Shown in pieces: positions 600-23,257 of a DNA stretch of 32,070 nt. Source of the DNA: a virus (lineage: Duplodnaviria > Heunggongvirae > Uroviricota > Caudoviricetes). The DNA is taken from the IMG/VR virus record IMGVR_UViG_3300034045_000104. One strand, 5' to 3'. The stretch's first letter is position 1. The number at the start of each line of letters is the position of its first letter. The position numbers and the translations under genes are program-made. The notes under the pieces were generated by a model. That model saw only the letters and a program-made list of their open reading frames with translations, did not search any database and was not told the origin of the DNA.

Positions 600-774
600 A
601 CCTACAGCAAGTAGGAATTATAGAAACATTAATCAGCATCTGCAAAAACCCTTTTATCCACTCATAGTAGAAATTAAAGAACATTCTGCGTGATATGATT
701 TGAAAACAATCTCGTTTTAACAGCAGCCAACCAATATCGGCAACTAAATAATAGATCCACTTTTAGTAGAAATT
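600..774 (-). CRISPR. Orphan Cas12a-type mini-array / crRNA-like cassette (3 handles)
   Basis: Minus-strand handles AATTTCTAC-TAAAA-GTGGAT (774-755), AATTTCTAC-TATGA-GTGGAT (675-656), AATTCCTAC-TTGCT-GTAGGT (619-600). All fit the Cas12a AAUU-UCUAC-loop-GUAGA-U handle with wobble or compensatory pairs. Spacing is irregular. Confidence 0.75.
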
Positions 775-830
775 AATATGTTAATTCAAGTTTAATAAAA
801 AGGTGCAAAATATTACCACCTAAGAAACCC

Positions 831-3598: not shown

Positions 3599-4318
3599 TT
3601 ATACAAATGCTTCACAAGATTCACTGCAACCATTTATAGCATCCATGTCATATCCAAGTAGGTCATATTGCAATTCTGGCATATGATCCTTAAACTCTGT
3701 AAACTCACATTTAGACATTTCAATCAACTTATCAACTGTTAAATATTCTCTGAACCAATATCTTCTTTGCCCATCCTTTACACCAACCAGACTGTATTGC
3801 TCCTTGAACCAATAACGAATTTCGGCCTTAGTAGTTGGAACCATTGAGATAAGCGGGTATATTAACTTTTCCTTTTTTGAGTTTGGATTGATTCTATCAA
3901 TTTCGTCCACTCGAATTCCAACACAAGCCAATGCATCTGGGTCAATCGAACGTCTATATTTGTTCAAGGGAATGGATTTTAAACGCCCTGAACATCTTGG
4001 AATACCTGGTCCTGACAATCCTTCCTTTTTAATATGTTGCTCAAAAGGCTCCCCATCTCTAGAAGCACTTGCATAGTTTACAATTTTATAAGTTTGACCT
4101 ATACCCTTTTGCTGATGCGTAACAGACTCAATCCAAACAAGATTTAAACCCCAATGCTTGTCACACTTATTCACAAATTCAAGCGTTTTCTCATGCTCTA
4201 AACCGGTGTTAGCAAATACAAAATACAAATCATATTAGCCGCTTTTATTATCCAGCAACCATTTACACATAAATGCACTGGTCCTACCTCCTGAAAATGA
4301 CACTACGAGCTTTTGCAT
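3599..4318 (-). pseudogene. PAPS-reductase-like (PP-loop) protein with premature stop
   Basis: ATG at 4318 gives MQKLVVSFSGGRTSAFMCKWLLDNKSG*YDLYFVFANTG. In-frame TAA at 4235-4237 separates the SFSGG PP-loop from the rest (GIRVDE motif). Confidence 0.8.
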
Positions 4319-4325
4319 AAAACAC

Positions 4326-4664
4326 CTATTCAACAATCACTAAATTAAGTTCATCGATACCAATAATATGTTTTATTTCCGCTGTAGGGAAAAGGCACTT
4401 AGCCCTATCCAGAGAAGAAAATACACTACCTACCTGCATATGTGCATCACGCCATTGATTATCAGACAACATTGGTTGAAAATAGATCTGTCTATCCTCT
4501 ATACCCAACCCAGCTTCATCACAACTATTGCAATACTCCAAACCAGCGTTACAATCTCCTTCATCATTAAGCACCCAACGCTGGGTTTCAACATACCAAG
4601 ATACAGGACTCATATCGGTAACATCACTTGAGCCGCACTTTTTACAAACTTTCACTATTGCCAT
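4326..4664 (-). CDS. Hypothetical protein with zinc-ribbon (CKKC...CNSC)
   Basis: Two CxxC pairs; GAGG Shine-Dalgarno upstream. Confidence 0.65.
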   Translation of the reverse strand: MAIVKVCKKCGSSDVTDMSPVSWYVETQRWVLNDEGDCNAGLEYCNSCDEAGLGIEDRQIYFQPMLSDNQWRDAHMQVGSVFSSLDRAKCLFPTAEIKHIIGIDELNLVIVE

Positions 4665-4714
4665 TTATATAACCTCTAAGATAAGTTAATTTATGATATA
4701 TAATAAATAAACTA

Positions 4715-4743
4715 CAAAGCCAGCTGAATTCAACTGGCTTTTA
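4715..4743. terminator. Intrinsic terminator-like hairpin
   Basis: AAAGCCAG-ctgaattcaa-CTGGCTTTTT just downstream of parB. Confidence 0.55.
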
Positions 4744-4760
4744 TCTAACATAGATATAGA

Positions 4761-6455
4761 CTAACTTTTATTTATATCTAGCTTTACCTCGCCATACTGA
4801 CTAATCGGAAACTGGATATATGGGGGAATGAAATCAGCTTTTAAGTTACTGACAAGGATTTCCTTGCGCTTTGGAAGTGTAGCTTTGGCAAACCCACCCA
4901 TTTCATCATCTGTCAACAACTCTTGAGCTACTGCCCATGTTGCATCCTTTGATGATAGACCTTGAATCACTTCTTCATCAGCTTTCCAGTAATCAGCAGG
5001 ATTAATTCCCATATCAACGCCAAGTCGCTCAATTAAATCCGTATTCTTATGAAGCGTAGCTAACATAATTGTTGAACACATCTCGGTCAATTCATCCATC
5101 GTCTTATCTTTAAGCTCATCAAAAACCTTAACAAGAGAATTGCCAAACACGCGCCACGTACTACCAAGACCAAATCCCTCCTTAAAATCACCAATTCTTT
5201 TATATAAATCCATGGTAATATCGTGGTTGGCAAGCTGAGCGTTTCCCTCTTCATTGATATCACCAACCTCCATAAATGAAAACACAGACTTAGTAATTAA
5301 ATGAGCCACCATAACCCGCATAGACATGAGCTTATCACCTGATAATTTAGCTCTGACCATTTGATAATGCCAATCAGAATAATACACTTGAGAACCCGAT
5401 GACAATTCTTGTCTTTGCTTTGTAGCAGGCATTTCAACATCTTGCTCGCTACTGGCTGTCTCAACATCAGGCTTTTCAGAAGCATCTCGCATATCATAGC
5501 CTTCATTAATATCCACTTGACCATCAGCAGCAACTGTAATAACAACACTGCCGCCTTCGGCCTTATCTAATGAATCACAACTCCATTTGTTAAATGATAA
5601 AGTGCTGTCCTTGTCGATAACCACAACCTTCCACCCGTCTTTTTCAAAAGCTTTTTTCTTAGCCATTACAGCTTTCAATTGTAACTTCCAAAACAAATCA
5701 ACATCAGTAATATAGCCTTCATCGGTAAACAAATCCTTACTCATGAGCATTTTATGTTTCTTCACATCAAAAAGGGCATAACCAGGGTCAATTTCCACAT
5801 TACAAAAAAAGGTCTTTGCATACCATTCATGTTTTGATAAGCCATCGTTTAATGCCTGAACATAGGCATCTTGCTTGTCATGCTCATAACGAACCATTAA
5901 CTTTAGAATATCATCATCAGTAAACACATCATTACGATATGCCTCTTTTGCAAGTTCAGACAACCCACCTAAAGCGATATTTTCCTTAACCTGTTTAACA
6001 GTTAACCCAAAACGCTTGGCAATGCTCGTAAATGTAGCACCCTTTGCCTTAAGATGGGTAAATGCTGTACATCTATCCAAGGCATCCATCTGCTGAGTAT
6101 AAATGTTTTCAGATAAAGACTTTGCAACATCATCTTTAATATCGGACTGAAGAACCACGCAAGGAACTTCGGGGTAAATCCCATCTTGTTCTTGTAATAT
6201 CTCACAAGCCTTTAAACGTCTTTGGCCTGCTATAACATGATAATTGCCATCATCTGCAAGTCGCACACTTAAAGGATTAATTAAACCTACCTCGCCAATA
6301 TTAATAGCAAGCTCTTTAATGCCATCAAGACCATGCTTTCTAACATTGTCATCACTTACTGTTAACTTATCAATAGCTACCAACTGCGTAGCCAATACAT
6401 TTACTGATTCAGATTCATCAGTTAAAACACTTACTTTACCCATAAAACACTCCAA
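4761..6455 (-). CDS. parB: ParB/RepB/Spo0J-family protein (long MGE type)
   Basis: N-terminal ParB domain (GLINPLSV...IAGQRRLKAC, SENI) followed by HTH. Probable start MGKVS at 6443 with GGAG SD. Confidence 0.85.
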   Translation of the reverse strand: MECFMGKVSVLTDESESVNVLATQLVAIDKLTVSDDNVRKHGLDGIKELAINIGEVGLINPLSVRLADDGNYHVIAGQRRLKACEILQEQDGIYPEVPCVVLQSDIKDDVAKSLSENIYTQQMDALDRCTAFTHLKAKGATFTSIAKRFGLTVKQVKENIALGGLSELAKEAYRNDVFTDDDILKLMVRYEHDKQDAYVQALNDGLSKHEWYAKTFFCNVEIDPGYALFDVKKHKMLMSKDLFTDEGYITDVDLFWKLQLKAVMAKKKAFEKDGWKVVVIDKDSTLSFNKWSCDSLDKAEGGSVVITVAADGQVDINEGYDMRDASEKPDVETASSEQDVEMPATKQRQELSSGSQVYYSDWHYQMVRAKLSGDKLMSMRVMVAHLITKSVFSFMEVGDINEEGNAQLANHDITMDLYKRIGDFKEGFGLGSTWRVFGNSLVKVFDELKDKTMDELTEMCSTIMLATLHKNTDLIERLGVDMGINPADYWKADEEVIQGLSSKDATWAVAQELLTDDEMGGFAKATLPKRKEILVSNLKADFIPPYIQFPISQYGEVKLDINKS

Positions 6456-8501: not shown

Positions 8502-8672
8502 CAAAGCAACTCCTTGCAAGAAGAGACGAAGAGATCCTCAAGGTAAAAATTCGGAGGCGTAGCCGTAGAACCTTTTACCGTCTCGGATCTTGTCTCTGAC
8601 AATCTAGACTGTCAATAAAGAGTGGACGATACATCACACCCAAGCCAGCCTATAAGCCAAGAAGTTACTTTG
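8502..8672 (-). ncRNA. Retron msr-msd-like ncRNA, copy 2 (upstream of RT)
   Basis: 15-bp a1/a2 (CAAAGUAACUUCUUG / CAAGGAGUUGCUUUG, two G-U pairs); candidate branching G at 8657; long msd-like hairpin 8523-8596 tipped by GGC-GTA-GCC; shares AAGAGTGG..CACCCAA..ATAAGCCAAGAAG with copy 1. Confidence 0.78.
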
Positions 8673-8715: not shown

Positions 8716-9255
8716 CTAGTCAAAACCAAATTCATAATGACCACCAACAGACGTGCTTTGCCAACACAACATCCAAAACATCGTATTTTGTTGTAATGCA
8801 GCTAAGATATGTTCATTCTCAGAAAATCCACCTGTTGATAATCTCCACACACTTTGATTATCAGCAAAATCCTTAAGCGGAACACTATCCCCACACCTTT
8901 TAATAAATGGCAATATCAATTCAAACAACTTACCCCAACCCAAAGTAATTGGCCAGACACGTATTGCCTCTAATGCCCAAGAAGGCACCTCAGAATCTTT
9001 TAACCCATCTGATAACAGTCTTTGCGTATACACGCAACTTACCAATTTGTCATATTCATCTTTTGTGATTTTCCAGAATCGCCCCCACCAATCAAAAGCT
9101 AATAACAACACATCACCAGAGGAGCTGTTTTCATGAACATATGCACAACCATCCAATGTCGGAATAGCAAGAATGGTTTTAATTAAATTATCAATACTTG
9201 ATTCCTCACCATAGGCCTCAACCCACCCACTACCAAATATATAATACTCTCTCAT
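8716..9255 (-). CDS. Hypothetical phage/MGE-type protein (179 aa)
   Basis: LSTGGFSENEHIL..FWMLCW..GGHYEF motif that I associate with phage hypotheticals; unverified. Confidence 0.7.
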   Translation of the reverse strand: MREYYIFGSGWVEAYGEESSIDNLIKTILAIPTLDGCAYVHENSSSGDVLLLAFDWWGRFWKITKDEYDKLVSCVYTQRLLSDGLKDSEVPSWALEAIRVWPITLGWGKLFELILPFIKRCGDSVPLKDFADNQSVWRLSTGGFSENEHILAALQQNTMFWMLCWQSTSVGGHYEFGFD

Positions 9256-9293
9256 ACATCACCAATTTATAAAAAACCATTATAGACAGGCAC

Positions 9294-9322
9294 AAAAAAG
9301 CCGCTTTAAAAAGCGGCTTTTT
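9294..9322. terminator. Bidirectional intrinsic terminator ending the crRNA cassettes
   Basis: AAAAAAGCCGC-tttaaaaa-GCGGCTTTTT. Confidence 0.8.
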
Positions 9323-9336
9323 GAATAGGAATATTA

Positions 9337-9467
9337 ACCAACACAAGTTGGGAGTAACAATTAACCCTAAGGTAATCGTCAGGAATTAACAAAGTCTATT
9401 AGACAACTGTGTTAGAACCTCTCCAAAACTTACCTACACAAGTAGAGATTTACGTAGTCTATTAAAC
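9337..9467 (-). CRISPR. Cas12a mini-array cassette 3
   Basis: Near-consensus repeat 9467-9432, 27-nt spacer 9431-9405 (AAGTTTTGGAGAGGTTCTAACACAGTT), half repeat ending 9404, variant handle ACTCCCAAC-TTGT-GTTGGT at 9355-9337. Confidence 0.75.
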
Positions 9468-9570
9468 AGCTAACTAAGAACAAAATACCCTATATGGTGC
9501 TTTTGAGTATCACAAGATTCAAAAAAACACTATATTCATGCTATTATACTCATTAGACCAGGGTTTGCAA
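9468..9570 (-). promoter_or_regulatory. Promoter + leader, copy C
   Basis: TTGCAA(9570-9565)-16 nt-TATAAT(9548-9543); 44-nt core 9487-9530 identical to copies A and B. Confidence 0.8.
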
Positions 9571-9594
9571 TTTTCTATAAAACAAATTAACTCA

Positions 9595-9785
9595 ATCTGC
9601 ATCAGCAAATTTACATAGCCCATTAGTCCAATAATATTTGTATTTCTCATAAGTTTACATAACCTATTAGACAGAAGTTATATTTATACTTATAGATGTA
9701 TCCGCAAAAGCGGAAGTTTTATAGTGTCATTGAGACTTATGAGTTAGGTATCCGCAAAAGCGGAAGTTTACAAAGTCTATTAAAC
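9595..9785 (-). CRISPR. Cas12a mini-array cassette 2 with variant TCCGC/GCGGA handles
   Basis: Repeats 9785-9750 and 9736-9700 with handle AACTTCCGC-TTTT-GCGGAT; 13-nt spacer 9749-9737; 27-nt spacer 9699-9673; degenerate repeats 9672-9654 and 9628-9595. Confidence 0.8.
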
Positions 9786-9867
9786 AGCTAACTAAGAACA
9801 AACTACCCTATATGGTGCTTTTGAGTATCACAAGATTCAAAAAAACACCTATATTCAAGCAATTATA
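9786..9867 (-). promoter_or_regulatory. Leader copy B with -10 box
   Basis: TATAAT at 9867-9862 with no consensus -35; 44-nt core 9805-9848. Confidence 0.7.
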
Positions 9868-9868
9868 G

Positions 9869-10031
9869 TCATTCACAAATTGGAATTAACGTAGCCTATT
9901 AGACCCGCTCAGACATAAGTTTCCTCAGCCAAATCTACACAAGTAGAAATTCTCCTAGTCTATTAAACGCAAGAGCTAGCCAACCCTGACCATGAATCTA
10001 CACAAGTAGAAATTCTCCTAGTCTATTAAAC
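9869..10031 (-). CRISPR. Cas12a mini-array cassette 1 (consensus repeats)
   Basis: Two identical 36-nt repeats GTTTAATAGACTAGGAGAATTTCTACTTGTGTAGAT (10031-9996, 9968-9933), 27- and 28-nt spacers, degenerate terminal repeat about 9904-9869. Confidence 0.93.
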
Positions 10032-10136
10032 AGCTAAATAAGGACAAACAACCCTATATGGTGCTTTTGAGTATCACAAGATTCAAAAAAACACCTATAT
10101 TCATGCTATTATAGTGATTAAGACCAGGGATTGCAA
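10032..10136 (-). promoter_or_regulatory. Promoter + leader, copy A
   Basis: TTGCAA(10136-10131, inside cas12a)-17 nt-TATAAT(10113-10108); 44-nt core 10051-10094. Confidence 0.85.
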
Positions 10137-13100
10137 TTATCTAACATATTTAAGAAATGCCCAAAATACTTTTCGTTTTCTAAAAACAAATCAACCTTGT
10201 CATCAACTGCAGTCTCATTGATTTGCTGTAAAGCCCATAACCCCTTCACCCCAATTAAATAAGCGCCCAACATATCAGTAGAGCAGGGCATATTACCTGC
10301 ATCCAAGGAATTGTAATAACTGCCATCAGAGCAACGAATGGGGGATAAAACATAATCCAAACCACCTCGCCCGTTAGATTGCCTCATTTTAAAAACCAGA
10401 TTCAATAAAAAGAATAAATCTCTAAAAAACGCAGCTGAATTAACCTCTAAGATCACTGGCAATATATCTTCACCATCCTTAAATTCAATATCAGCATTAA
10501 TCAACAACGACTGCAATTCTTCATTAACATTAATACATTCAAATTCTTTTTGGGTCTTGTCATAAAAATAACGCTCATCTCCATGAGTGGATGCCACCCA
10601 TTTTGTTTTATAACCAGTAAAATCCCGTTTAGAAAACATTGGCTCATAATCAAAACCAATATCAAAAACATTGAATTCTTTATTAAAACGAACACCTTCA
10701 AACTTACCTAAGAAAGACTTCGCATTTTTCATGTTTTTATATTGAAACCTGATCAAATTAACAAAACCTGATTTCGGACAAAGCGATGTTGTATAGCTTG
10801 GATTAGCAATAAACATGGCCCCCGCCTGTTTTCCTAGCATTTTAAGCGATTCAAATTTAGGTGCCAATTGATAAGCATTTAAAACATGACCCGCCTGGCC
10901 AATAGTCTTTTCTTTTAGTACCATAAAATTAAGCTTATTTGATAATGCAATCAAGAATCGGTCATATATTTGCGCCTCAAACTTCTGCCTAGCTTGCTTG
11001 AAACCAGCATCCAATCCATCCACACATAGTACCGCATTATGCTCAATCATTAATCTTGTAACCCTATGCAAGACGGTACCAAGAAAACCTTGTTTTAATT
11101 CTTTAATCCCATCAACAGCAGCCCATGCCTTTCTTGATGCGTTTCTTTTCAACTCTCTATCTTTCAAGATAACTTGATAATCAGTAACTATTTTGTTGGG
11201 GTCAACGACCTTATCAAGTGTATCATGATCGATAATTTTTCCTGATTGGTCCATTACAACATAGTAAAGAAGATTCTTTTCACCACGTTTTAAAGCCAGT
11301 ACATTTATTTTCTTTTTATTGGCTCGAATCACTTCATTATTGAAGTTGCGGTTAAAGTAAAAAGATTCTTTTGCGCCTTGATGGTTTAATGTGATGCTAA
11401 AATTAAATTGAAAATGTTCCTTAGTGTATTTCTTATCTTTAATAATATCATAAGCATAAGTTGCTGTTTTATTTTTTGCATTGGGATTTTTATTCTTAAT
11501 TGGAATCCCTGCTTTATGCACAATCATTTGTTCCTTGCTAATTAGTGCGGGTCGCCAAAAAAGCTCACCACCTCCATTTAATTTGATAATTGGCGCTTTC
11601 AAGTTCACTTGAGAGAACAAGTTTTTAATGTACATCGTGTGTATACTATCACGCCCTTTTGAATGGGGAGAAAAATCCATATTGTAGATTTGGAATAAGA
11701 ATAACTTACCACTTTCAACAGCCGCATCGATGTAATCATTTTTGATACAAGTAAAATCAACTTTATAAGCGGCCTTTTCAACTTCTACATAAAACTCACT
11801 GACATTGGTATAAGTCGATGTCTTACTGAAATTATAATTAAACTGGTTCCAAACAGGATGAATTTTAAGACAGCCCTTAAAGTAATCAATGACCTTATGA
11901 CAGTCATCTAAATTGAATTCAGCCTTATCAAAACCATCCTTTGGCAACCCACCTTTGGTATGTGAAGAGCGATTAGTAATATCGATAATTTCATCACTAG
12001 GATTAAAGAATTCACGTCTATTCAACGCTGAAATAAAAACTTTAGGACCCATTTTATTGAAGCCAGATACCATGGAGTAATCCATTTTATTGTAGCCAAC
12101 ACCATCTGGGCATTTGATTTCATTCAAAAATGCTTTTTTCTTCGCAGCTTTTACAGGGTTAAAATGCTCATCAAATTTAAGCGTGTAATCAAAGAGCTTT
12201 TTATTATCTTGATTAACTATCCCCAGGTAATACAAACCATCTTTTTCAAACATAACAGATGAGGATGCCTGTTCTTGACCTGATGACCAACCACTGAGTA
12301 ATTGATAATTATCAAAGTTTAACTTGATCTTCTTACTAGTTGATTTTTTCTTAGTTACATGATTTCTGACTTTGTTATAAAGCAAAAACATTAATTCATC
12401 TAGATGAGAATAAACATCCAGGAACCCAGAATAAAACAAAGAATCATGATTGAGGGCTTTAGTCATATCAATAGCAGCTTTATTTTCAACCAAATGAAGC
12501 GGCCTATAAGCTACAACGAACGCGTTCATGCACTCCAATAAGGACTGAATTATTTGAACTTGCTTAAATCCCTTGCCGCCTTCGTCTTCATCATTTCTTG
12601 TTTTTGGTAGCCTTCTATTGGCATCTAGAAAATCAAGGCATTCAATTGTCTTATATAACTCACGAGCCTTGTCATAAGACTCTTTTAATTTGATATAAGA
12701 ACCAACAATGCCAGATTGCACAGGCAATTGCGTTTTCAATTCTGATAAAATAGAATAAAAACCATCATCAGAATTCAGCGTATTAGCATATTTGATAATG
12801 AGCTCATCCATCTGACCGATACTGACAACCGACACATCATTTAGATTGTTCTCACTTAGCACGACATCAATTAATTTATAGTCACCAAATATAGCGTTAG
12901 ATAAGAATTTAATTTTGTTGGTTTTGATATAAATAGCAGTCGCGTCACGCTTGCTCAGCGATAATATTGTTTGACTCAAAGAATTAAAAATACCATCCTT
13001 TGACTCTAACATCTCAACAGCGGCATTAAGTGCGGCAATCATTTCCTTATCAGTATCGAAAAACGCAGGCACAAACGACAAAGAGCCCCCTTCACCAAAT

Positions 13101-13990
13101 ATTTGACGTTGAAGTTTTACAAAAACGCCAAACCTTGAGATGTCTTTATTGACTGCTAATAATTCATATATAAAGCTATTTATACCCTTGGTACGAGAGC
13201 CATCCTCATGACTAACACCTAGGAATTTTGCATTGTAATTATTTATATTGTTCTGAGCGACATAATCAAAAGCCTTGCTTAATTCAAACAACTCATCACT
13301 CTTATGTAACACATCCAATAAGCCATCAAATCTTTTGTCTTGCTCACCCAACCCAAGAACATTATTAAAGGCCAATTTATTTTTGAAAAACAATTCTAAA
13401 TTCACATCAACGATACGATAGGCCAGGGCATTAGATTTGGACTCAGATGAAAACAAGCTTTTCTTTAGCTTAAAGTAATCCATAAAATAACTGGTAAACT
13501 TATTAAATCCATGGACTATTTGAATGTCTTTATAGTCACAATCTTGCTCATCCATCCACTCAGGCAAAACCTTCACCAAAAATGCTGATTTCAAAAGAGC
13601 GCTTAAGCCAATAAAGCATTTAGCAACATGCTTTCTTAACTTGTCTTTACTAGAATCATAGGCTTTAAAAGCCTTTTGCATGCGCTTGGTCTTTACTTCT
13701 TTTGACTCATCACCTTCATCAGATGTACCAATCACAGACCGATACAACTCATAGTGGGACTCAATCAATGCGGCATCAACCTTAAGGCCTGCAAGACAAC
13801 GCTTGATGTAATCACGATAGTAAGCATCAGCAAATCCTTTTACAGCCAAAAAATCCTTAGCTCTTTGCTTATCTTGTTCAACAAATCCCTTTTCTTTAAT
13901 GTGTTCCAGAGTTTTACCGACCGGAATTAGTTTTTGGCGAATAGTTTTTGTCACTTGGTATACACCGGTGCTTTCATCAAAGACACTCAT
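10118..13990 (-). CDS. cas12a: Type V-A Cas12a (Cpf1) homolog, predicted nuclease-dead
   Basis: 1290 aa; N-terminal KTIRQKLIPVGKT, KLNFDN..LSGW, NKMGPKVF, KLNGGGELF. RuvC-I LALKRGEKNLLY (D>K), RuvC-II LCVDGL (E>D), RuvC-III TDMLGAY. Adjacent Cas12a-type repeats. Confidence 0.95.
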   Translation of the reverse strand: MSVFDESTGVYQVTKTIRQKLIPVGKTLEHIKEKGFVEQDKQRAKDFLAVKGFADAYYRDYIKRCLAGLKVDAALIESHYELYRSVIGTSDEGDESKEVKTKRMQKAFKAYDSSKDKLRKHVAKCFIGLSALLKSAFLVKVLPEWMDEQDCDYKDIQIVHGFNKFTSYFMDYFKLKKSLFSSESKSNALAYRIVDVNLELFFKNKLAFNNVLGLGEQDKRFDGLLDVLHKSDELFELSKAFDYVAQNNINNYNAKFLGVSHEDGSRTKGINSFIYELLAVNKDISRFGVFVKLQRQIFGEGGSLSFVPAFFDTDKEMIAALNAAVEMLESKDGIFNSLSQTILSLSKRDATAIYIKTNKIKFLSNAIFGDYKLIDVVLSENNLNDVSVVSIGQMDELIIKYANTLNSDDGFYSILSELKTQLPVQSGIVGSYIKLKESYDKARELYKTIECLDFLDANRRLPKTRNDEDEGGKGFKQVQIIQSLLECMNAFVVAYRPLHLVENKAAIDMTKALNHDSLFYSGFLDVYSHLDELMFLLYNKVRNHVTKKKSTSKKIKLNFDNYQLLSGWSSGQEQASSSVMFEKDGLYYLGIVNQDNKKLFDYTLKFDEHFNPVKAAKKKAFLNEIKCPDGVGYNKMDYSMVSGFNKMGPKVFISALNRREFFNPSDEIIDITNRSSHTKGGLPKDGFDKAEFNLDDCHKVIDYFKGCLKIHPVWNQFNYNFSKTSTYTNVSEFYVEVEKAAYKVDFTCIKNDYIDAAVESGKLFLFQIYNMDFSPHSKGRDSIHTMYIKNLFSQVNLKAPIIKLNGGGELFWRPALISKEQMIVHKAGIPIKNKNPNAKNKTATYAYDIIKDKKYTKEHFQFNFSITLNHQGAKESFYFNRNFNNEVIRANKKKINVLALKRGEKNLLYYVVMDQSGKIIDHDTLDKVVDPNKIVTDYQVILKDRELKRNASRKAWAAVDGIKELKQGFLGTVLHRVTRLMIEHNAVLCVDGLDAGFKQARQKFEAQIYDRFLIALSNKLNFMVLKEKTIGQAGHVLNAYQLAPKFESLKMLGKQAGAMFIANPSYTTSLCPKSGFVNLIRFQYKNMKNAKSFLGKFEGVRFNKEFNVFDIGFDYEPMFSKRDFTGYKTKWVASTHGDERYFYDKTQKEFECINVNEELQSLLINADIEFKDGEDILPVILEVNSAAFFRDLFFLLNLVFKMRQSNGRGGLDYVLSPIRCSDGSYYNSLDAGNMPCSTDMLGAYLIGVKGLWALQQINETAVDDKVDLFLENEKYFGHFLNMLDNCNPWS

Positions 13991-14135
13991 AAACCAGCCC
14001 CACGCCCTTCACGCACATTCTCAATCAACTCATAAAAATCATCACTTGCATTCATACCCGTACCCTTATTAGTTATTTGAATTATATTATAGAAAGGCAC
14101 ATATTACACGCGCCACCTTACTTACTCATCTACTT

Positions 14136-14864
14136 TTATTGTTCGGCTAGAAATTGACTAAATTTAGCATATTCATCAGCTGTAATATTAACAAACTTAT
14201 TCCACCCTGTATACGCATCTAGCAACTCACTAGCCATGTGCTTATTAGAGGCATCAAAAACCTCACACGTTCCATTAAATAAAATATCACCAGACCTTAA
14301 TGCATTTATCAAGTCATTAATTCCGTAATTGTCATAATGATTAACATAATCAGAGCCAAGCAAAAAATATTGTTTATTATCAATTTCAAGCTGCTCATCT
14401 ACAAAGCCACTGACCGTCTCATACCAATCTTTTTCATCCCAGTTATCATTTCCATACTTCTCTTGAAAGGCCATGGTGATTTCAACACAAATTCCCATCA
14501 AACCAGCCTGACCCTCATGGCGCTTTATTTTTATAAGTTTAGGATTAACATCTGCCAAACCAACAATTTGCTCACAAACCAGCCAATTAACCTCCAAATA
14601 CCCAAGCAATCTTTTTTTGAGCGTCTTACAGCCAACCTTAAGAATATTTTGTATTGACTCAACTACCATTGCACAATTTCTATACGCATTATCAACATAG
14701 AATACTGTATTTGTACTCATACAGATAATCGCAACAGTCAAGCCTTGGCTATTTGCATTATTATCAAAATAGACATCGATATGCATAAAATTATCATCAT
14801 CTATAAAATCATTCTTAACTTCAGTTACATTCTTCTGATTACTATTAGTCATATTTACCACCAC
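14136..14864 (-). CDS. Hypothetical protein (242 aa)
   Basis: Long co-oriented ORF; no motif recognised. Confidence 0.75.
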   Translation of the reverse strand: MVVNMTNSNQKNVTEVKNDFIDDDNFMHIDVYFDNNANSQGLTVAIICMSTNTVFYVDNAYRNCAMVVESIQNILKVGCKTLKKRLLGYLEVNWLVCEQIVGLADVNPKLIKIKRHEGQAGLMGICVEITMAFQEKYGNDNWDEKDWYETVSGFVDEQLEIDNKQYFLLGSDYVNHYDNYGINDLINALRSGDILFNGTCEVFDASNKHMASELLDAYTGWNKFVNITADEYAKFSQFLAEQ

Positions 14865-14921
14865 TGTTATTTATATATACAATCATAGCCCTGCGAGATA
14901 ATCAAAAACCATTCCAACAAA

Positions 14922-15992
14922 TTAAGCCGCTTTCTTAAATATTGGATTTCTTCCCATCTGAAACTCCAAATTACTTTTGGCATATTTATTAACATACACA
15001 AGAATTTGATTCATTTCACTACTTGGAAATAGCAAAGTGTAGTGTGACTTAAACACTTTCAGCTTAATACCATTGATAATACATTCATCTCCTGCATTCA
15101 ATTTCTTTGCCAAAAACCCATCAAGTGCTTCAAGTCCTTTATAGTTATTAAAATACTTAAACATTCTTTTCACCGCACCCCAAAGCTCCTCACAATAACG
15201 ACCATATCGATGCTCAGAACCAAAATAATCACCATCACTACATCCCAAAACCCAAGACTCACTCAACTGTAAGCCATCTTTTATTTTTTTACAGTCTCTA
15301 AAGGTGCCTGCTATCCTAATACCTGCCTTGGCATGATAGGCGCCGTTAATAGCATCAGGGTCAAACACATTTATAAAGTCATCTAAAGCCTCATCTAATT
15401 TAAAAACCTCATCAAAAGCCTTAAAATCCCATTTATCAACATTGACAAAAGACCCACCAATGATATTGCTACACGTATAATGACAATCGATCATATGTTT
15501 AACTCTTGTCTGGAAAGCTTGTTTTAATTCATCATAGGCATTGTTGGCCAGTGATTTCATATCAAAGGACATATCAAAGCTCCCTTTAAGCCACTCAACA
15601 TCCTTATGGGCATAGATGTCTTTATATGCAGCTATCGCCTTCTTTAATTTAAGCCTGACACCATCAACCGTTCTTTGATAGCCATATCCCATGATATTTC
15701 TAAATACATTGGTATCGCCATAACAAGCCAAACCAATACCCACAAAACACATTTTCACACCATTAAAATAAAAATAATCAGATGTCTCACCCTTATTCAA
15801 AGCATAAACAGCATTAGAAAGCCCATCATCAACACACAACATCCCACAATAAGCATTGGCTTTATCGTAATCACCATTAATCCTCTCAGTTTTACTGAAA
15901 TCAACATTGGCCAACAAGTCAGCTCTAAAATCTTCATATTTAATAATTTTCATGTATTCACCAATTTCTAAAATTCCATTATAATTTGACAC
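14922..15992 (-). CDS. Hypothetical protein (356 aa)
   Basis: Long co-oriented ORF ending KKAA; no confident family. Confidence 0.75.
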   Translation of the reverse strand: MSNYNGILEIGEYMKIIKYEDFRADLLANVDFSKTERINGDYDKANAYCGMLCVDDGLSNAVYALNKGETSDYFYFNGVKMCFVGIGLACYGDTNVFRNIMGYGYQRTVDGVRLKLKKAIAAYKDIYAHKDVEWLKGSFDMSFDMKSLANNAYDELKQAFQTRVKHMIDCHYTCSNIIGGSFVNVDKWDFKAFDEVFKLDEALDDFINVFDPDAINGAYHAKAGIRIAGTFRDCKKIKDGLQLSESWVLGCSDGDYFGSEHRYGRYCEELWGAVKRMFKYFNNYKGLEALDGFLAKKLNAGDECIINGIKLKVFKSHYTLLFPSSEMNQILVYVNKYAKSNLEFQMGRNPIFKKAA

Positions 15993-16018
15993 AAAAAAGC
16001 ACCGCTTAAAACGGCGCT
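15993..16018 (-). terminator. Intrinsic terminator
   Basis: Minus strand AGCGCCG-ttttaag-CGGTGCT-TTTTT. Confidence 0.6.
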
Positions 16019-16067
16019 ATTCACTATTGAATATTAAGCTGCAGCTCGCTTGTGTTTTAATTGTTCA

Positions 16068-17431
16068 TTGACATCCTCACCGCCCTAAAGGACGATGATT
16101 CCTAAAAGAATTAGGCAACTAACGATCGCTCGTACAGTTGAGGTTCCTGCTTCATAGAGACTGCCAACGCACTCTCTCCACAGGCTATCGCGACAAGCCC
16201 TGCCGCTAAAATATTTAATGCAGCGTTTAAGTCTGCATTTAGTTCTAATCCACATACCAGGCACTTAAACAACTCTTGGGTTTTTCTGTTGTCTTTGTGT
16301 GTAAATCCACAACCACTACATTTTTGAGAAGTGTATTTTGGGTCTATCTTGATTACATCATTGCCCTGCCATTGGCACTTATACTCAAGCTGGCGAACAA
16401 ACTCGCCCCAAGCTTGCTCAAGGATCACTCGATTCAACCCAGATTTTGCCTTAATGTTTTTACCAGGGCTTTCCATATCGCCTTTAGCTGATTTACTCAT
16501 GTTTATGATTTTCAAATCTTCAACAAAAATGATAGCGTGGTTTTTGCTCAATTGTGTTGAGGTTTTATGAAGAAAATCGTGACGAGTATTTTTAATCAAA
16601 GTATGCAGCTTTGAAACCTTAAGTTTTTGTTTTCTCCAATTATTAGAGAACTTGACCTTACGCGCTAAGTTGCGTTGCAGCTTAGCTAGTTTGGTTTTAT
16701 TAATTTTGCCAGAGTTAACTGGTGCCACTACCAGCCCATCAGAACAAGTCACAAACTGTTTGACTCCCAAATCAATACCAATAGCAGAGGTAGCTTTTGA
16801 TTCAGCATTGACAGCAGTTTCAACCTGAACTGACATGTACCAACCATTGGCACCTTTGGATATGGTTATATTCTTTGGTGTACCAACAATCTCTTGAGAT
16901 TTAAAGAAACCAACCCAACCAATTTTAGGCAAGTACACCCTGCGGTTATCGAACTTAAAGCCCTGAACATACCTGAAAGCATTGGATTGGTGCTTTTTCT
17001 TAAATCGTGGCAATCTTTTGAGTGGTTGTTTCTTATCGAAACAATCCTTAAAAGCCTTTTCCAAATCTTTGAGTTTTTGTTGTAGAACCTGGCTATGACA
17101 TTCTTTCAAGAACCCATATTCTTCTGATTGTTTCCACAAGGTCAACCAGTAGGCGGATTCATTGTACCAGTAGATATTTTGTTTTTGCTCAAGCCTAGAG
17201 ACACACATTGCCAATACTTTATTCCAAGCAAACCGAGCATGACCACTAAAGACATTGAGCTTGCGCTCAATATTAACATCGGTCTTTAACTTGAATTTAT
17301 AGGCTTTGCGTATATTCATAGTTGGGAGTTTACCAAATCCTATTCTCAAAACTTGAGAATGGAATTAAATTAAACATTAAAAAAAGGCTTATATCCCCGC
17401 CATGAATGACGGGGTTTTACGCCTAAAAGTG
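16068..17431 (-). mobile_element. IS200/IS605-family non-autonomous element (tnpB only)
   Basis: Left end TTAT|CAC...CCCCGTCA-TTCA-TGGCGGGG hairpin (17414-17395); right end TCATCGTCC-TTTA-GGGCGGTGA hairpin finishing GGATGTCAA at 16068; no tnpA. Confidence 0.85.
16111..17349 (-). CDS. tnpB: TnpB RNA-guided endonuclease
   Basis: KAYKFKL N-terminus; Ruv[17 protein letters not shown] all intact; CSGC/CLVC zinc finger. Confidence 0.95.
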
Positions 17432-17464
17432 ATAATTAACAAGATATTATAGTTTCACTGCAAT

Positions 17465-17678
17465 TCAAGCAGCGACTTTAAATGTACGCGGTTGATTCAC
17501 CTCAACCACTTTAAACTCAGCACCATATTTCTTATTTACCCCACCACAAAAGACACATGCCTTAGATTCATCCATAAAACCCTTAATTTTGAAATAGGGC
17601 TCATATGAATATTTATAACCACGCTTGATGCCCCTAATGAAATAACCGTCCTTTACTGATCGCAGGGCATAATACATA
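17465..17678 (-). pseudogene. 3' fragment of IS3-interrupted gene
   Basis: Removing the IS and one TAT copy joins ...ITVD to MYYALR... in frame. Confidence 0.8.
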
Positions 17679-17708
17679 TGTAATGGTCAAGTTTTATCGG
17701 AGACATTT

Positions 17709-18548
17709 TTAGCCACATTTCCTTAATTCATTAAATTTCTGATTTGGAGTTAAATAATCAATAGCAGAATGTAATCTTTTGTAATTATAGAAATAAATAT
17801 AACTTTCAACTTCTGTAATAACTGCTTCATGATTAATAAACCTCAAATGGTTTAATCGTTCTGTTTTTAAATTTCTAAAAAATCTTTCCATAACAGCATT
17901 ATCCCAACAATTACCTCTGCGACTCATACTCCGAGTTATTTTTAAACCTTCACAATACACGGCAAACATGTTTGCCGTGTATTGTGTGCCTTGGTCAGAG
18001 TGAAACAATAGATTACTTGTGTCTGGTTGCTTTCTATTAATAGCATTGCTTAATGCCGCTTTTGCTAATGTGGCATCGGGTGTTTTTGACAAAGCCCAAC
18101 CAACTATTTCTTTTGTGCCTAAATCAAGTACACTTGCTAGATAACTCCAGCCTTGGTGGTTACGAATATAAGTTATGTCACCAACCCAATGTGTATTGAT
18201 TCTTGATTGTTTAAACTGTCTATCTAGAACATTCTCAATCTTCATATCACATATACCGCTATTGGGGTAATAATGCTTTTTCTTTGGCTTAATCGCCACT
18301 ATTTTAGCCATTTTCATCATGCTGGCTGTTTTATGAAGGCCAATATTGATCCCTTCAAGTTTTAATTGTTGTTGCATACGCCTTTTACCATATGAATGCT
18401 TAGTTTCAATGGCTGTTTGCTTGAGAATTGAGATTATCTTATTCTTTTCCCCTGCAAGTGGCTTTTCCTTTGATTGGTCGTAATAGGTGCTTTGATTTAA
18501 ATCAAAAACATCGCATAATTCCGTGATTGTATATTTAGGATTTGCCAT
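17709..18548 (-). CDS. IS3 transposase OrfB (DDE/rve)
   Basis: WVGDITY, HSDQGTQY, DNAVMERFF motifs; the -1 frame is open from the A6G site to this ATG. Confidence 0.93.
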   Translation of the reverse strand: MANPKYTITELCDVFDLNQSTYYDQSKEKPLAGEKNKIISILKQTAIETKHSYGKRRMQQQLKLEGINIGLHKTASMMKMAKIVAIKPKKKHYYPNSGICDMKIENVLDRQFKQSRINTHWVGDITYIRNHQGWSYLASVLDLGTKEIVGWALSKTPDATLAKAALSNAINRKQPDTSNLLFHSDQGTQYTANMFAVYCEGLKITRSMSRRGNCWDNAVMERFFRNLKTERLNHLRFINHEAVITEVESYIYFYNYKRLHSAIDYLTPNQKFNELRKCG

Positions 18549-18574
18549 CTTAAGTTCTTTGATTTTAATTGCTT

Positions 18575-18880
18575 TTAATCTTCTCGAATAAAGATGGCTG
18601 CAGCCTTTTTTAAGATTTCATTATCTCTTTTAGCTCTCCATAATTGATTTTTTAAACCCTGTATTTCTTGTTGTTCTGCAGTTAATGCTTTCTTACCTTC
18701 AGGGGTATTACCAACAAGTTCATCAAGATATTGTTTCTTCCAACGTGAAACTGCGGTAGAACCAGCTCCTGAAATATCAACAATTTGTTGATTTGTATAA
18801 CTTTCATTAACCATTAATTTGGCATAATCTAATCTTTGTTCAACTGTAAATGACAACCTTTGTTTTCTTTGCTTTGACAT
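18575..18880 (-). CDS. IS3 transposase OrfA (HTH)
   Basis: HTH plus leucine-zipper-like end ...ENEILKKAAA-type (RDNEILKKAAAIF). Confidence 0.9.
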   Translation of the reverse strand: MSKQRKQRLSFTVEQRLDYAKLMVNESYTNQQIVDISGAGSTAVSRWKKQYLDELVGNTPEGKKALTAEQQEIQGLKNQLWRAKRDNEILKKAAAIFIRED

Positions 18881-18943
18881 TTTCTTACCTCGTTTTGTCT
18901 ATTATAAGGCTAAAAATGTCTCCGAGTTTATTAAACCATTACA

Positions 18944-19485
18944 ATATCCACCGTAATATCTTTAGTAGGTTTCTTTATTCTGGGGAAATACTCTTTGCGC
19001 ACTTTAGCTATTTTTGACTCATCAGCACTTAATGTTAACTTGACAGTGTTATCGTCATTACAGCCATCGAGCAACTCAATTAATTGACCTGTTGATTTGA
19101 CCCCAACATCAAAAGGCTCTTTAACATCATGCTCAGCACGGGCAAAAGCCCTAACCGTAACACCAACTTGTGCCAACTGCTCAACTGTTAATGCTTGCTT
19201 GCACCCAACATTAAACAAGTTGCAGTATTGCTTAAAAGACAAGCCCTTACCGTTTTTAGTAAATGTATCACCAACGTCAATATGTGATTTTAAATTGCTT
19301 TTCATCTCTTCATATGTGCCGTATGATTTGTTATTGTCAAATATATAGCGATACACCCACCAATCACGACATCTCTTGCCTGATGCCTCCCATGTATTAT
19401 TAGAACCAGACATTAATAAAGGAATGAACCTACCATCACCTAAATCTATAAACTGCTTTTCATACAAGATTTCAAAACACATCAC
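18944..19485 (-). pseudogene. 5' fragment of IS3-interrupted hypothetical gene (about 250 aa originally)
   Basis: ORF reads into the IS end (last residues IVMV come from the IR). Confidence 0.8.
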
Positions 19486-19533
19486 ATCACCAATATTCTA
19501 TTATTCACAATAATGAATTATAAAAATGCTCAA

Positions 19534-22500
19534 TTATGCCGCTTTGTTTTTATTTGAAACAAATTGATTCATATCCTCCAAATCCCGAACAAATTGATAG
19601 ATGATTGTATCCATATGTAAGAACTCAGTATCAGATAATAGCGGATCACCAAAATCTAAACCCTCGTTAGCTACTTCTCGCTTAAATGCCACCATCTGCT
19701 CTTGATAAATATCAATAGAACCTTCAAGCATTACATATTCGATAGTTACCTTTTTAAGTTGGCCAGGCCTTAATAACCGTGAATAACATTGAGCCTCATT
19801 TTTGTTCAGCCAATCCCTGCCGTAAAAGCAAGCATAGCTTGCTACCTCGACATTTTCCCCCTCGGCCAAGCATTTTTTAGTGGCCAGTAATATATCAATA
19901 TTCCCATTCTTATACTCATCATTAAGCAATTGGGCTCGTTTTGGCGCAGTTATAGCACCAGTATAAACCAATGACTTAAAACCACGTAAAGCTAACATGT
20001 CGTGTAATCTGTTAATCGTATCAGGTGAATCGGCAAATAAAATACATTTCTCCCCATCACCAACCCTTTTTATCAAGCTATCAACACAGTAGCGGTCTTT
20101 AGATGTGGGCTCTGTATGAATGCCAATAACACCACTGTCCTTATTTAATACAAAAGGCTTGTTACAAGCTGCTAATACCGCATTGATGCGAGGCAATATA
20201 CTGTGCATAGATGTAACCTCACCATCTTTTACCTTTTTCATTCTCTCCATCCATACATGCTTAAATTCAGTACATACTTTAAGATAATGCTCTAAATGCT
20301 CATCGTCCCAAGACAAATAAGTATTAATTACCTCAGGTTTTGGCAAATCAACATGCTTAACGCAATCAGGCTCACTTGTAACCCTGCGCTTCATAAATGG
20401 AGCCAATAACTGTCTATATTCACCAACATTACGAATCTGGGGGATCTCTCTTTTTGCCCCTTCATCCATGGTATCTGAAAACATATTTGTAACCCATTTC
20501 ATAGTTACAAACATATCCATAAACTCTTTATTCGAGCTAAATGAGTCATTCATGTTATTAACATGATGAGGCATTAAATGCCCATGTAAACCCCAGGGCA
20601 TATGCGAGCACCCGTCACCCGCACAGGCAATTAACAATGGCAATATATTGCGTGCTTGATTGGGAATAGGGGTGCCAGTCATAAGAATTAATTTCTTAGC
20701 ACTTAATTGTCTTACCGCCCTTGATTGTAAGGTTGACGTGTTACTCAATAAATGCGCTTCATCGGCCAACACAAGCCCACAACGGCGCCTTAAATGATTG
20801 GCATACGTCTTGTTAGGCTTTGTTCTATCAGGCAAGCAAGAAAGACGTGAATAACTTACAATGTTGATCTTTTTTAAGTTGTTTACCGTTTCCAATGAGT
20901 CAATAACATTAACATCATTAATATCAATATAATCTGACAAATCCTCTTTTATTTGTCTTATAAACTCGAACACTAATTTTGACATAACAACGATCAAGCC
21001 ATGCTTTACATTAGCTAGCAATATAGAGGCTAATATTTGCCTAGTCTTACCCAAGCCCATTTGAGCACCTAATATTGAACCTACTGGACTAAGCGTCAAC
21101 TCACAAATGTCATCCAATTGAAATTTCCAAAGCCATTTTTGAAGCAGAAGTTTTTTAGCCCGGGCATTTATCTCATGATGCAGCTCAGGGAATGCAGCAC
21201 TCTTGCCTTCATACTTGGCAATCCATTTACCACCTTCACCTTTTTGAACCATTTCAAAGTTATCATAAATATATTTTTCAGATAATTTATATTCAGCACC
21301 TTCACAGCTACAATAAAAAATCCCTTGGCGCTCAACCACGTCTATAAACTCACCTTTGTTTATAACTGGCGATATAAAAGAATCCTCCTCAATTAAAACA
21401 TCAACTTTAGCTCTGTACTTGGATTCAGAAATTGTGTTTTCATCAACATAGACAATATGACGCATAGGCTCCACAATCCTTGCCATCTTCCTTGCTCTTT
21501 TCTTAATGTAGTTTATAAGCCCATCATCAACAGTAACAACAGCTCCCGTACTTGAAATTATATTAACTAAATTCTGATAAATAGACATCACAGGATCAGT
21601 TTGCATTAAATGTAACTCACAGTCCAAACGGCCTTGGCCAACATACTTAACATGTTTAGCTAATTTCATTTTGTCATCACATGACTTTGCTGACTTAACA
21701 TAAACGGCATTTAAAACTTTAGCTTGCATTAATCCACATTTAAAACCTAAAATTATTTTACGTCCATTATGCGCCACCCTTACTGATTTATCACCAGTTA
21801 CAGGCATCGTTATTATTGGCTTTGAGAAACTTAATCCACGCTTAGAAATTGAGCAACTACCCATATACTCAGACAACTTTAAGACAGGGTAATTAGATAC
21901 CTTAAAATCTGCATTAACTTTCTCACGAATCATCCCGTCAGTAAATCTATTAAATACACACACAGATGTTTTAACCAAGGCGCCTTGTTCACTAAAGGCA
22001 TTAACTGGCAAGTCATAAATAGCACGTAGATTTTTATCTGTTAACTCAAGCTTGTTGGCAAAATTGGTTGGCAGAACTGCTATAACAATATTTGAAACAC
22101 TCTTTGCCTGTGCTAAAGCATACTCATGGCTTAGCGCACTGGAATTTGGGCCATATTCGCCATAATGATTACAACCAAGATTTTTTAAATGTGGCGATTC
22201 AAGGCTCAAGCTAAATGGTGGATTAATTAGCGAAAAATCAAATCTATCTTTTGAAAACGAAATATTTTCCATGCCAGAATTTATAATATCATAATCAAAA
22301 TCAGCAGCGCTTAAAGCGTCACATAAAGCATCCACGGACTCACCGTGAATATCACATCCAAATAAATGATGTTTTTGAGGGTCAGCCAACCAAAACAGCG
22401 AGCCAACCGCGCAGCTATTGTCCATCAAGGATATCTTACTTCTCTGTGCGTAGCCTTCACTTGATTCAATAATATCCCAGCACAAACGCTGAATATCATT

Positions 22501-22620
22501 TGTTGTAAAAAACTGAGATAAAGTTTTCTTTCGCACCTTATGCAAATTACCAAGACTACCAGGACGTTCAGCTTGTGAACCAAGCGACTTTATATTTGTT
22601 AGATTTTCATACCAAGACAT
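19534..22620 (-). CDS. N6-adenine methyltransferase-SNF2 helicase fusion
   Basis: QFFT, MDNSCAVG, NPPF MTase motifs; GAQMGLGKT, DEAH, MTGTP and QCYSRLLRPGQ helicase motifs. Confidence 0.85.
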   Translation of the reverse strand: MSWYENLTNIKSLGSQAERPGSLGNLHKVRKKTLSQFFTTNDIQRLCWDIIESSEGYAQRSKISLMDNSCAVGSLFWLADPQKHHLFGCDIHGESVDALCDALSAADFDYDIINSGMENISFSKDRFDFSLINPPFSLSLESPHLKNLGCNHYGEYGPNSSALSHEYALAQAKSVSNIVIAVLPTNFANKLELTDKNLRAIYDLPVNAFSEQGALVKTSVCVFNRFTDGMIREKVNADFKVSNYPVLKLSEYMGSCSISKRGLSFSKPIITMPVTGDKSVRVAHNGRKIILGFKCGLMQAKVLNAVYVKSAKSCDDKMKLAKHVKYVGQGRLDCELHLMQTDPVMSIYQNLVNIISSTGAVVTVDDGLINYIKKRARKMARIVEPMRHIVYVDENTISESKYRAKVDVLIEEDSFISPVINKGEFIDVVERQGIFYCSCEGAEYKLSEKYIYDNFEMVQKGEGGKWIAKYEGKSAAFPELHHEINARAKKLLLQKWLWKFQLDDICELTLSPVGSILGAQMGLGKTRQILASILLANVKHGLIVVMSKLVFEFIRQIKEDLSDYIDINDVNVIDSLETVNNLKKINIVSYSRLSCLPDRTKPNKTYANHLRRRCGLVLADEAHLLSNTSTLQSRAVRQLSAKKLILMTGTPIPNQARNILPLLIACAGDGCSHMPWGLHGHLMPHHVNNMNDSFSSNKEFMDMFVTMKWVTNMFSDTMDEGAKREIPQIRNVGEYRQLLAPFMKRRVTSEPDCVKHVDLPKPEVINTYLSWDDEHLEHYLKVCTEFKHVWMERMKKVKDGEVTSMHSILPRINAVLAACNKPFVLNKDSGVIGIHTEPTSKDRYCVDSLIKRVGDGEKCILFADSPDTINRLHDMLALRGFKSLVYTGAITAPKRAQLLNDEYKNGNIDILLATKKCLAEGENVEVASYACFYGRDWLNKNEAQCYSRLLRPGQLKKVTIEYVMLEGSIDIYQEQMVAFKREVANEGLDFGDPLLSDTEFLHMDTIIYQFVRDLEDMNQFVSNKNKAA

Positions 22621-22701
22621 TTTTAAATTCCAATATATTTAATATTAAATAATTATAGATTGGCACTAAAACCAAGCAATAACCCACAATTCTAGGACCT
22701 A

Positions 22702-23199: not shown

Positions 23200-23257
23200 A
23201 AATTATCCTCATAAAATCTCAATAGAATCAATAATAAGAACGCGTGAAAATCAAAAA

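Follow-up and report, generated by a model that had tools for sequence, protein, structure and literature searches.

In canonical CRISPR-Cas systems of type V-A, such as those of FnCas12a, LbCas12a and AsCas12a, one leader heads an array of near-identical 36-nucleotide (nt) repeats, the 3' 19 nt of which form the AAUUUCUAC-loop-GUAGAU handle. The terminal repeat is degenerate, which a passage of PMC13187072 (citing Liao et al. 2019) presents as a known V-A device against extraneous CRISPR RNAs (crRNAs). Here we describe a Cas12a guide locus of a different layout in IMG/VR record IMGVR_UViG_3300034045_000104, a 32,070-nt stretch of Caudoviricetes virus DNA that we refer to in full as the window. 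The locus agrees with the canonical systems, represented among the loci fetched for comparison by L002 (active; cas12a-cas4-cas1-cas2, a single leader and an array), in its Cas12a domain set and RNase residues, the lack of a trans-activating crRNA (tracrRNA), the repeat length and handle, the degenerate terminal repeat and the leader-start motif TGCAAACC..GT..T.AT. It differs from them in that the Asp and Glu of RuvC are replaced, adaptation genes are not nearby, there are three copies of the leader, the repeats vary among themselves and each leader is followed by only one or two spacers.

Other described systems share parts of this layout. In the type II-C arrays of Neisseria meningitidis and Campylobacter jejuni, a promoter lies inside every repeat, according to the relevant passages of PMC5965381 and a figure legend of PMC13187072. 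As predicted for the window, such a locus has several transcription starts and its guides do not depend on a single upstream promoter; however, the II-C promoter is part of the repeat and the Cas9 is active, whereas in the window the TATAAT boxes lie in leader copies and not in repeats, a whole leader copy is present for every one or two guides, and the Cas12a appears dead. Cas12m (type V-M) and type IV systems are plasmid-borne and interference-deficient (reviewed in PMC11656645). The window resembles them in its mobile-element location, the apparent loss of target cleavage, the absence of an adaptation module and a presumed role in silencing during conflicts between elements, but its effector is a Cas12a by Pfam and PDB similarity, not Cas12m or Csf, its array is split by promoter-leader copies, and no plasmid-matching spacers were found for it. 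CreR and the viral CracrVA1 are crRNA-like regulators of V-A systems (10.1101/2024.10.29.618823; 10.1101/2023.03.03.530964). They too are stand-alone units of promoter, handle and guide that involve Cas12a binding without cutting; theirs, however, pair partially with their targets, act with an active nuclease and lie upstream of cas12a or on a phage that carries no cas gene, whereas the guides in the window are full length and lie downstream of the gene for a Cas12a that looks dead. Virus-borne mini-CRISPR arrays were reportedly described by Medvedeva et al. in 2019. Such arrays, modelled in PMC7099407, have one or two spacers and sit on a mobile element without adaptation genes, as here, but they borrow host Cas proteins and have one leader, whereas the window has three tandem leader-headed mini-arrays beside its own effector. 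Searches of open-access text turned up no paper that describes duplicated leaders in V-A loci or a naturally dead Cas12a.

The locus consists of three tandem paralogous mini-arrays on the minus strand, between the cas12a stop codon (10118) and a single terminator (9320-9293) (Table 1). Each cassette comprises a perfect TATAAT box, a leader of 75-76 nt with an invariant 44-nt core, one or two well-formed repeat-spacer units and a terminal repeat with a disrupted hairpin. A repeat search of the window recovers a 124-nt unit three times, at 9432-9555, 9750-9873 and 9996-10119. The original prediction, made from the letters alone, had placed a TATAAT box, the same 44-nt leader core and a repeat in three tandem units here, and all of these are present, though on the minus strand: because the repeats end in the classic Cas12a handle, AATTTCTAC-TTGT-GTAGAT, they are type V-A repeats and the direction of transcription is from 10136 to 9337. 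We lean towards reading this as the guide-RNA locus of a non-cutting Cas12a of a mobile element, in which duplicated leader-promoters, each heading one or two guides, restart transcription internally and the guides are loaded for binding and silencing.

The number of guides per cassette, first put at two to three, needs correction. Two stand in cassette 1, with canonical handles, two in cassette 2, with compensated handles, and a single one in cassette 3, with a near-canonical handle that contains one G-U pair; a third unit in cassette 2 (R2.4) and a second in cassette 3 (the hairpin relic R3.3) are doubtful. The hairpin pattern TCNNCTTNTGNNGRT has five matches against 0.14 expected. In R2.1 and R2.2 the handle stem is TCCGC/GCGGA in place of TCTAC/GTAGA, which amounts to two compensated pairs, and R2.4 has a third stem variant, TTTGC/GCAGA. 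Among twelve handles from the window and the related loci L003 and L004, four of the five stem pairs are changed on both sides, far above shuffled and slid controls, and 100% of stem cells are paired; the latter figure is partly circular, as the rows were picked for forming hairpins, but the double changes at homologous positions are not. R1.1 and R1.2 are the sole identical pair of repeats, and handles differ at up to 6 of 19 positions. Such variety is far more than an array still gaining spacers would show. Each cassette ends in one hairpin-less repeat (R1.3, R2.3 and R3.2). No spacer of one cassette is related to those of the others, and a uniform length of 27-28 nt is shared by four spacers. 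A general repeat search of the window, which was not aimed at anti-repeats, turned up no tracrRNA anti-repeat, and no Rfam family matches the window.

Conservation is higher in the leader than in the repeats. The window contains a 25-nt leader word exactly three times, and shuffled sequences do not contain it. When the three cassettes are aligned from the TATAAT box to the end of the first repeat (118 columns), 19 columns are variable and the longest invariant run covers 44 columns (permutation p about 0.001). Variable columns make up 7 of 82 in the leader and 12 of 36 in the repeat (4 of 17 in its 5' part, 8 of 19 in the handle); with the length of the invariant run, this indicates that the 44-nt core is real and that the repeats have changed more than the leader ahead of them. 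No change among the cassettes is seen at the leader-repeat junction or in the first 12 nt of any first repeat. All three TATAAT boxes are perfect, and a TTGCAA -35 box is found only in cassettes 1 and 3. Neither reading of the sequence nor a consensus scan found a terminator between the cassettes; the only one lies at the very end. Transcripts from upstream should therefore read through, so that expression would be nested and cumulative and not that of three insulated units. This, together with the missing -35 box of cassette 2, weakens the earlier idea of independent, separately tuned promoters.

The neighbouring effector carries the REC1, REC2, PI, RuvC and Nuc domains (Pfam E-values 1e-20 to 1e-60), and its best PDB matches are Cas12a structures (E = 1e-224 to 1e-120). 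It lacks the catalytic Asp/Glu/Asp triad of type V-A RuvC: GIDRGE of RuvC-I is changed to ALKRGE (Asp>Lys, K901) and LEDLN of RuvC-II to VDGLD (Glu>Asp), while the Asp of RuvC-III is kept. These motifs suggest that the protein is nuclease-dead. The RuvC-I and RuvC-II changes are common to the window protein and its homologs P0002 (74% identity) and P0009 (52%), whereas close active relatives have the consensus. The residues of pre-crRNA processing, H843, K852 and K869 in FnCas12a, align to H825, K834 and K851 and are invariant in the three-member clade. A residue other than Asp is found at the RuvC-I position in about 12 of the 150 best Cas12a cluster representatives, so dead-looking Cas12a proteins are recurrent. 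One of them, P0123 (Asp>Ser), carries cas4-cas1-cas2, and a non-Asp residue in RuvC-I is therefore not always tied to the loss of adaptation. For two further dead-looking clusters, P0149 and P0069, the contigs end soon after the gene.

The claim that cas1, cas2 and cas4 are missing nearby is borne out: a Pfam scan of 28 open reading frames (ORFs) of the window found no Cas1, Cas2 or Cas4 domain, and none of these genes was found near cas12a of L003 or L004. As to growth of the guide set by duplication rather than adaptation, the duplication is well founded. A copy of some 33-40 nt from the cas12a 3' end precedes cassette 3 and includes codons that match the C-terminal NC(N/K)PWS; a 43-amino-acid (aa) pseudo-ORF there reads ENCKPWS, where cas12a itself has NCNPWS and the 74% homolog NCKPWS. 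The three terminal repeats also have derived features in common, namely a C at position 3 and, in two of them, AATTCC. The duplicated unit thus spanned the cas12a 3' end, the leader and a whole mini-array, and the sequences show the cassettes to be paralogs from tandem segmental duplication; their identity is 85-90%, their handles differ and their spacers are unrelated. The spacers themselves do not fit duplication alone. They are unrelated among the cassettes, and the uniform 27-28 nt of four of them is a hallmark of integration at a measured length. This makes it more likely that they were once acquired by an integrase, in an ancestor or in trans, and are now frozen.

Comparison with related elements, which had been proposed as a check on the cassettes, recovered the layout elsewhere. 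L003, an independent ENA assembly with 52% identity and the same RuvC changes, has two promoter-leader-mini-array cassettes: its leader copies (8544-8651 and 8880-8987) are 90% identical, carry TTGCAA-17-TAAAAT each, and are followed by three and four repeats, respectively, one of which has a stem pair compensated from C:G to A:U. The recurrence in so distant a relative makes the layout look like a real, selected way to express a fixed set of guides. Leaders are 85-90% identical within a locus and 56-62% between loci, so that the duplications were either independent or homogenised by gene conversion. L001, the only contig for P0002, ends one base after the gene, inside the leader-start motif; this is at most suggestive of a de Bruijn assembler stopping at a repeat. 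In the separate Asp>Lys lineage of P0093, L007 (4240-4401) and L008 (4236-4397) carry units of about 107 nt downstream of Cas12a, with TATAAT directly before each AATTTCTAC handle; the two contigs come from different runs, and each breaks off within the second unit. Judging by these boxes, L007 and L008 may have one promoter per guide, which is nearer than the window to the promoter-per-repeat logic of type II-C. L004-L006 (Asp>His) have a single leader and eight mutually diverged repeats. In the L004 array (13966-14442) all eight differ in loop and flank while the stem is mostly kept, and it looks like another frozen, non-homogenised array; the element itself is 100-190 kb long and encodes a sigma factor, RecA and a ribonucleotide reductase.

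A motif of about 19 nt, TGCAAACCnnnGTnnTnAT, marks the leader's 5' edge in 8 of the 11 V-A loci fetched, the canonical cas4-cas1-cas2 locus among them, and occurs twice in L003. This identifies the copies in the window as genuine V-A leaders. Read against the pattern, the window has one mismatch at cassette 1 and a 1-nt deletion at cassette 3. The motif lies directly after the last cas gene and contains a -35-like hexamer, and the Cas12a proteins of these loci are only 30-50% identical; it may be a conserved promoter or a protein-binding site. Searches for closer relatives returned nothing: there was no near-identical DNA in the plasmids or phages searched, no relative was confirmed by protein (single sequence or alignment) in genome, viral or JGI metagenome contigs, the repeat and leader patterns had no match in viral, metagenome or genome contigs, and the cassette 2 handle had none in viral contigs.

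Several other roles were considered for the leader. All three copies fold into a hairpin; the fold z-scores (-2.1, -2.6 and +0.5) are weak, however, and L003 lacks this hairpin, which leaves it unsupported as a conserved RNA element. With no U-run behind it, the hairpin was rejected as an intrinsic terminator separating the cassettes. A peptide gene was rejected as well: a sense frame of 16 codons and antisense frames of 18-20 codons are broken by the 1-nt deletion of cassette 3, and there is no evident ribosome-binding site. The apex of the hairpin, GAATC-TTGT-GATAC-T (minus strand, 9487-9530, 9805-9848 and 10051-10094), matches a Cas12a handle in geometry and loop but contains one A-A mismatch, and with the 19 invariant nt behind it could be a crRNA-like RNA; no target for these 19 nt was found in the window, and L003 lacks the apex feature. 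Within the invariant core, each leader also contains an antisense promoter-like site (ATCACA, 16-17 nt, TATATT; plus strand, 9509-9536, 9827-9855 and 10073-10101), which faces back to the preceding cassette or to the cas12a 3' end.

In the mechanism that we propose, all three leaders would fire, and the extra copies would act as internal promoters that restart transcription within a terminator-free unit. Transcripts would run to the common terminator and produce a cumulative dosage gradient, with distal guides at least as abundant as proximal ones. The benefit would be insurance against polarity on an untranslated RNA, keeping the distal guides expressed. The Cas12a RNase would cut upstream of every hairpin, those with compensated stems included, to give five, perhaps seven, guides, and guide-loaded Cas12a would bind DNA without cleaving it, resulting in silencing. 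The array would no longer adapt, and its repeats would drift while the hairpins stay.

Whether the additional cassettes are of any use can be questioned. Unequal recombination between repeats may have duplicated the leader as a neutral by-product, with the first promoter alone of importance and cassettes 2 and 3 as decaying passengers. The 13-nt spacer, the 5'-degenerate R2.2, the deleted R2.3, the missing -35 box of cassette 2 and the spacing of only 5-10 nt between some repeat relics are all visible decay and rearrangement of the expected kind, and a recent duplication would also give high leader identity. We nevertheless regard this explanation as unlikely: the adjoining repeats have diverged more than the leader and the three TATAAT boxes, the diverged handles still pair by means of double changes, and full promoter-leader copies are found twice in a 52%-identical relative, with a promoter per guide in a third dead lineage. 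The invariance of the leader-repeat junction and of the first 12 nt of the first repeats would also be expected if spacers were still inserted at each leader by a Cas1-Cas2(-Cas4) integrase that the host, or another part of the element, provides in trans, so that the three leaders would be multiple entry points for adaptation. The identity of R1.1 and R1.2, as after a recent insertion, the uniform spacers of 27-28 nt and the leader-start motif in common with the canonical cas4-cas1-cas2 locus fit this explanation, but the 32-kb window has no cas1, cas2 or cas4 and each cassette only one or two spacers. In cassettes 2 and 3, moreover, the first and next repeats differ strongly, so these have had no recent insertion, and ongoing adaptation seems quite improbable.

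It is very unlikely, in our view, that the locus makes counter-defence decoys, that is, crRNA-like RNAs whose several handle variants load a host Cas12a and neutralise or divert it in the manner of Racr and Cracr RNAs, which typically have no cognate cas gene beside them and carry short or partially matching guides. Mobile elements are described as making such RNAs, for type V-A included, in parts of 10.1101/2024.10.29.618823 and PMC10651486. The handle variants could suit different host proteins, and the element has a remote handle-only unit; against this, the element encodes a cognate Cas12a of full length, whose RNase site is intact and whose gene lies immediately upstream on that strand, the spacers are of full length (27-28 nt) instead of shortened, and no guide complementarity to any cas promoter was found in the window or the fetched loci. 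An assembly artefact that expanded one leader-array into three would be a natural suspicion, as repeats make assembly difficult and relatives' contigs break off here. The copies, however, differ by 10-15% and have distinct repeats, different handles and unrelated spacers, and an independently assembled relative has two copies in the same layout, which makes an artefact barely credible.

Returning to the multi-promoter guide locus, several observations weigh against it. Promoter activity at the three leaders and the loss of nuclease activity are both read from motifs, cassette 2 has no -35 box, and the likeness of the leaders could stem from recent duplication or gene conversion rather than from selection. 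The pairing score of the handles is in part a product of how they were chosen, and the leader hairpin has weak fold scores and is not conserved in L003. Layouts with several promoters were seen in only two to three lineages, and L004 is a dead lineage with a single leader. 

No protospacers were found in PLSDB, INPHARED, IMG/VR (searched with the first 22 nt of S1.1, S1.2 and S3.1), the window or the fetched loci, and no guide has a full or seed-only match, with or without a TTTV protospacer-adjacent motif (PAM), in the window or the fetched loci. A blastn search of the whole locus against phages matched S2.2 to Cellulophaga phages (26/28, E = 0.2). We treat this as chance because the match includes 3 nt of the repeat and the PAM position reads GAT, not TTTV.

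The block of cas12a and its arrays lies within a variable region of a backbone common to L001. Its neighbours encode a retron-type reverse transcriptase, a ParB-like protein, methylases, SNF2 helicases, an IS3 element and TnpB; the IS3 transposase is closest to copies on gammaproteobacterial plasmids (54-56% identity). Between shared backbone genes, the window has a methylase/SNF2 fusion, IS3, TnpB and unknown genes (13996-23282, ~9.3 kb) where L001 has a DNA-ligase-like gene only (3872-5182), and this difference in content places the cas12a block at a variable cargo spot. A 22-codon ORF (13987-14055, minus strand) stands behind a ATAATATAAT box, and its ATGA end overlaps the cas12a start codon; translational coupling of the two is possible. 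About 9 kb from cas12a, a remote unit (600..790, minus strand) contains three handle-only crRNA-like elements without a leader copy. Two of these have the stem TCTAC/GTGGA and one has CCTAC/GTAGG, all with 5-nt loops; guide-like sequence and the unit's own terminator-like hairpin follow. The remote unit probably serves the same Cas12a as the three-cassette locus.

Table 1. Features of the Cas12a guide locus in the window and positions of the leader-start motif in the window and in related loci
Feature	Coordinates	Strand	Description
cas12a	10118..13990	-	1290 aa; all five Cpf1 Pfam domains
Cassette 1 promoter	10108..10136	-	TTGCAA 10136-10131, 17 nt, TATAAT 10113-10108; -35 box overlaps last cas12a codons
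Cassette 1 leader	10032..10107	-	76 nt; contains invariant 44-nt core
Cassette 1 mini-array	9868..10031	-	R1.1 10031-9996; S1.1 9995-9969 (27 nt); R1.2 9968-9933; S1.2 9932-9905 (28 nt); R1.3 9904-9868
Cassette 1 terminal repeat R1.3	9904-9868	-	Hairpin disrupted
Cassette 2 promoter and leader	9786..9867	-	TATAAT 9867-9862, no recognisable -35 box; leader 9861-9786
Cassette 2 mini-array	9640..9785	-	R2.1 9785-9750; S2.1 9749-9737; R2.2 9736-9700; S2.2 9699-9673 (27 nt); R2.3 9672-9640
Cassette 2 spacer S2.1	9749-9737	-	13 nt; 27 nt on a reading of R2.2 as 5'-truncated
Cassette 2 repeat R2.2	9736-9700	-	5' part degenerate or truncated
Cassette 2 terminal repeat R2.3	9672-9640	-	Hairpin deleted
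Doubtful extra unit	9571..9629	-	Repeat-like R2.4 (9629-9595), then guide-like 24 nt running into cassette 3 promoter
cas12a 3' relic and cassette 3 promoter	9543..9610	-	Relic ~33-40 nt; TTGCAA 9570-9565, 16 nt, TATAAT 9548-9543
Cassette 3 leader	9468..9542	-	75 nt; one-base deletion
Cassette 3 mini-array	9337..9467	-	R3.1 9467-9432; S3.1 9431-9405 (27 nt); R3.2 9404-9372; R3.3 9366-9337
Cassette 3 terminal repeat R3.2	9404-9372	-	No hairpin
Cassette 3 hairpin relic R3.3 (doubtful)	9366-9337	-	Stem CCAAC/GTTGG, loop TTGT
Intrinsic terminator	9293..9320	-	Only one of the locus; GC stem then T run; read from sequence, not called by consensus scan
Leader-start motif, window	10117-10135, 9552-9570		TGCAAACCnnnGTnnTnAT
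Leader-start motif, L001	9043-9061		TGCAAACCnnnGTnnTnAT
Leader-start motif, L002	12043-12061		TGCAAACCnnnGTnnTnAT
Leader-start motif, L003	8547-8565, 8883-8901		TGCAAACCnnnGTnnTnAT
Leader-start motif, L004	13864-13882		TGCAAACCnnnGTnnTnAT
Leader-start motif, L007	4201-4219		TGCAAACCnnnGTnnTnAT

A broader generalisation can be offered tentatively: dead, non-adapting Cas12a lineages of mobile elements may have repeatedly rebuilt their arrays as multi-promoter guide operons, with a leader copy for every one or two guides in the window and L003, a promoter ahead of each guide in L007/L008, and dosage set by the number and position of promoters, and the 44-nt core may itself be a handle-like hairpin with a fixed 19-nt guide, acting as a regulatory crRNA-like RNA that is produced three times. 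If our reading of the locus is true, it documents a step between adaptive CRISPR arrays and hard-wired guide-RNA genes, at which the effector is dead, adaptation is gone, structure is all that selection maintains in the drifting repeats, and the promoter-leader has multiplied. It would also constitute a natural multiplexed CRISPR-interference design, in which internal promoters drive several Cas12a guides, and would provide a set of stem-compensated handles that are presumably acceptable to the protein. The dead Cas12a of mobile elements may be a programmable repressor whose guide dosage is set by the architecture of the array.

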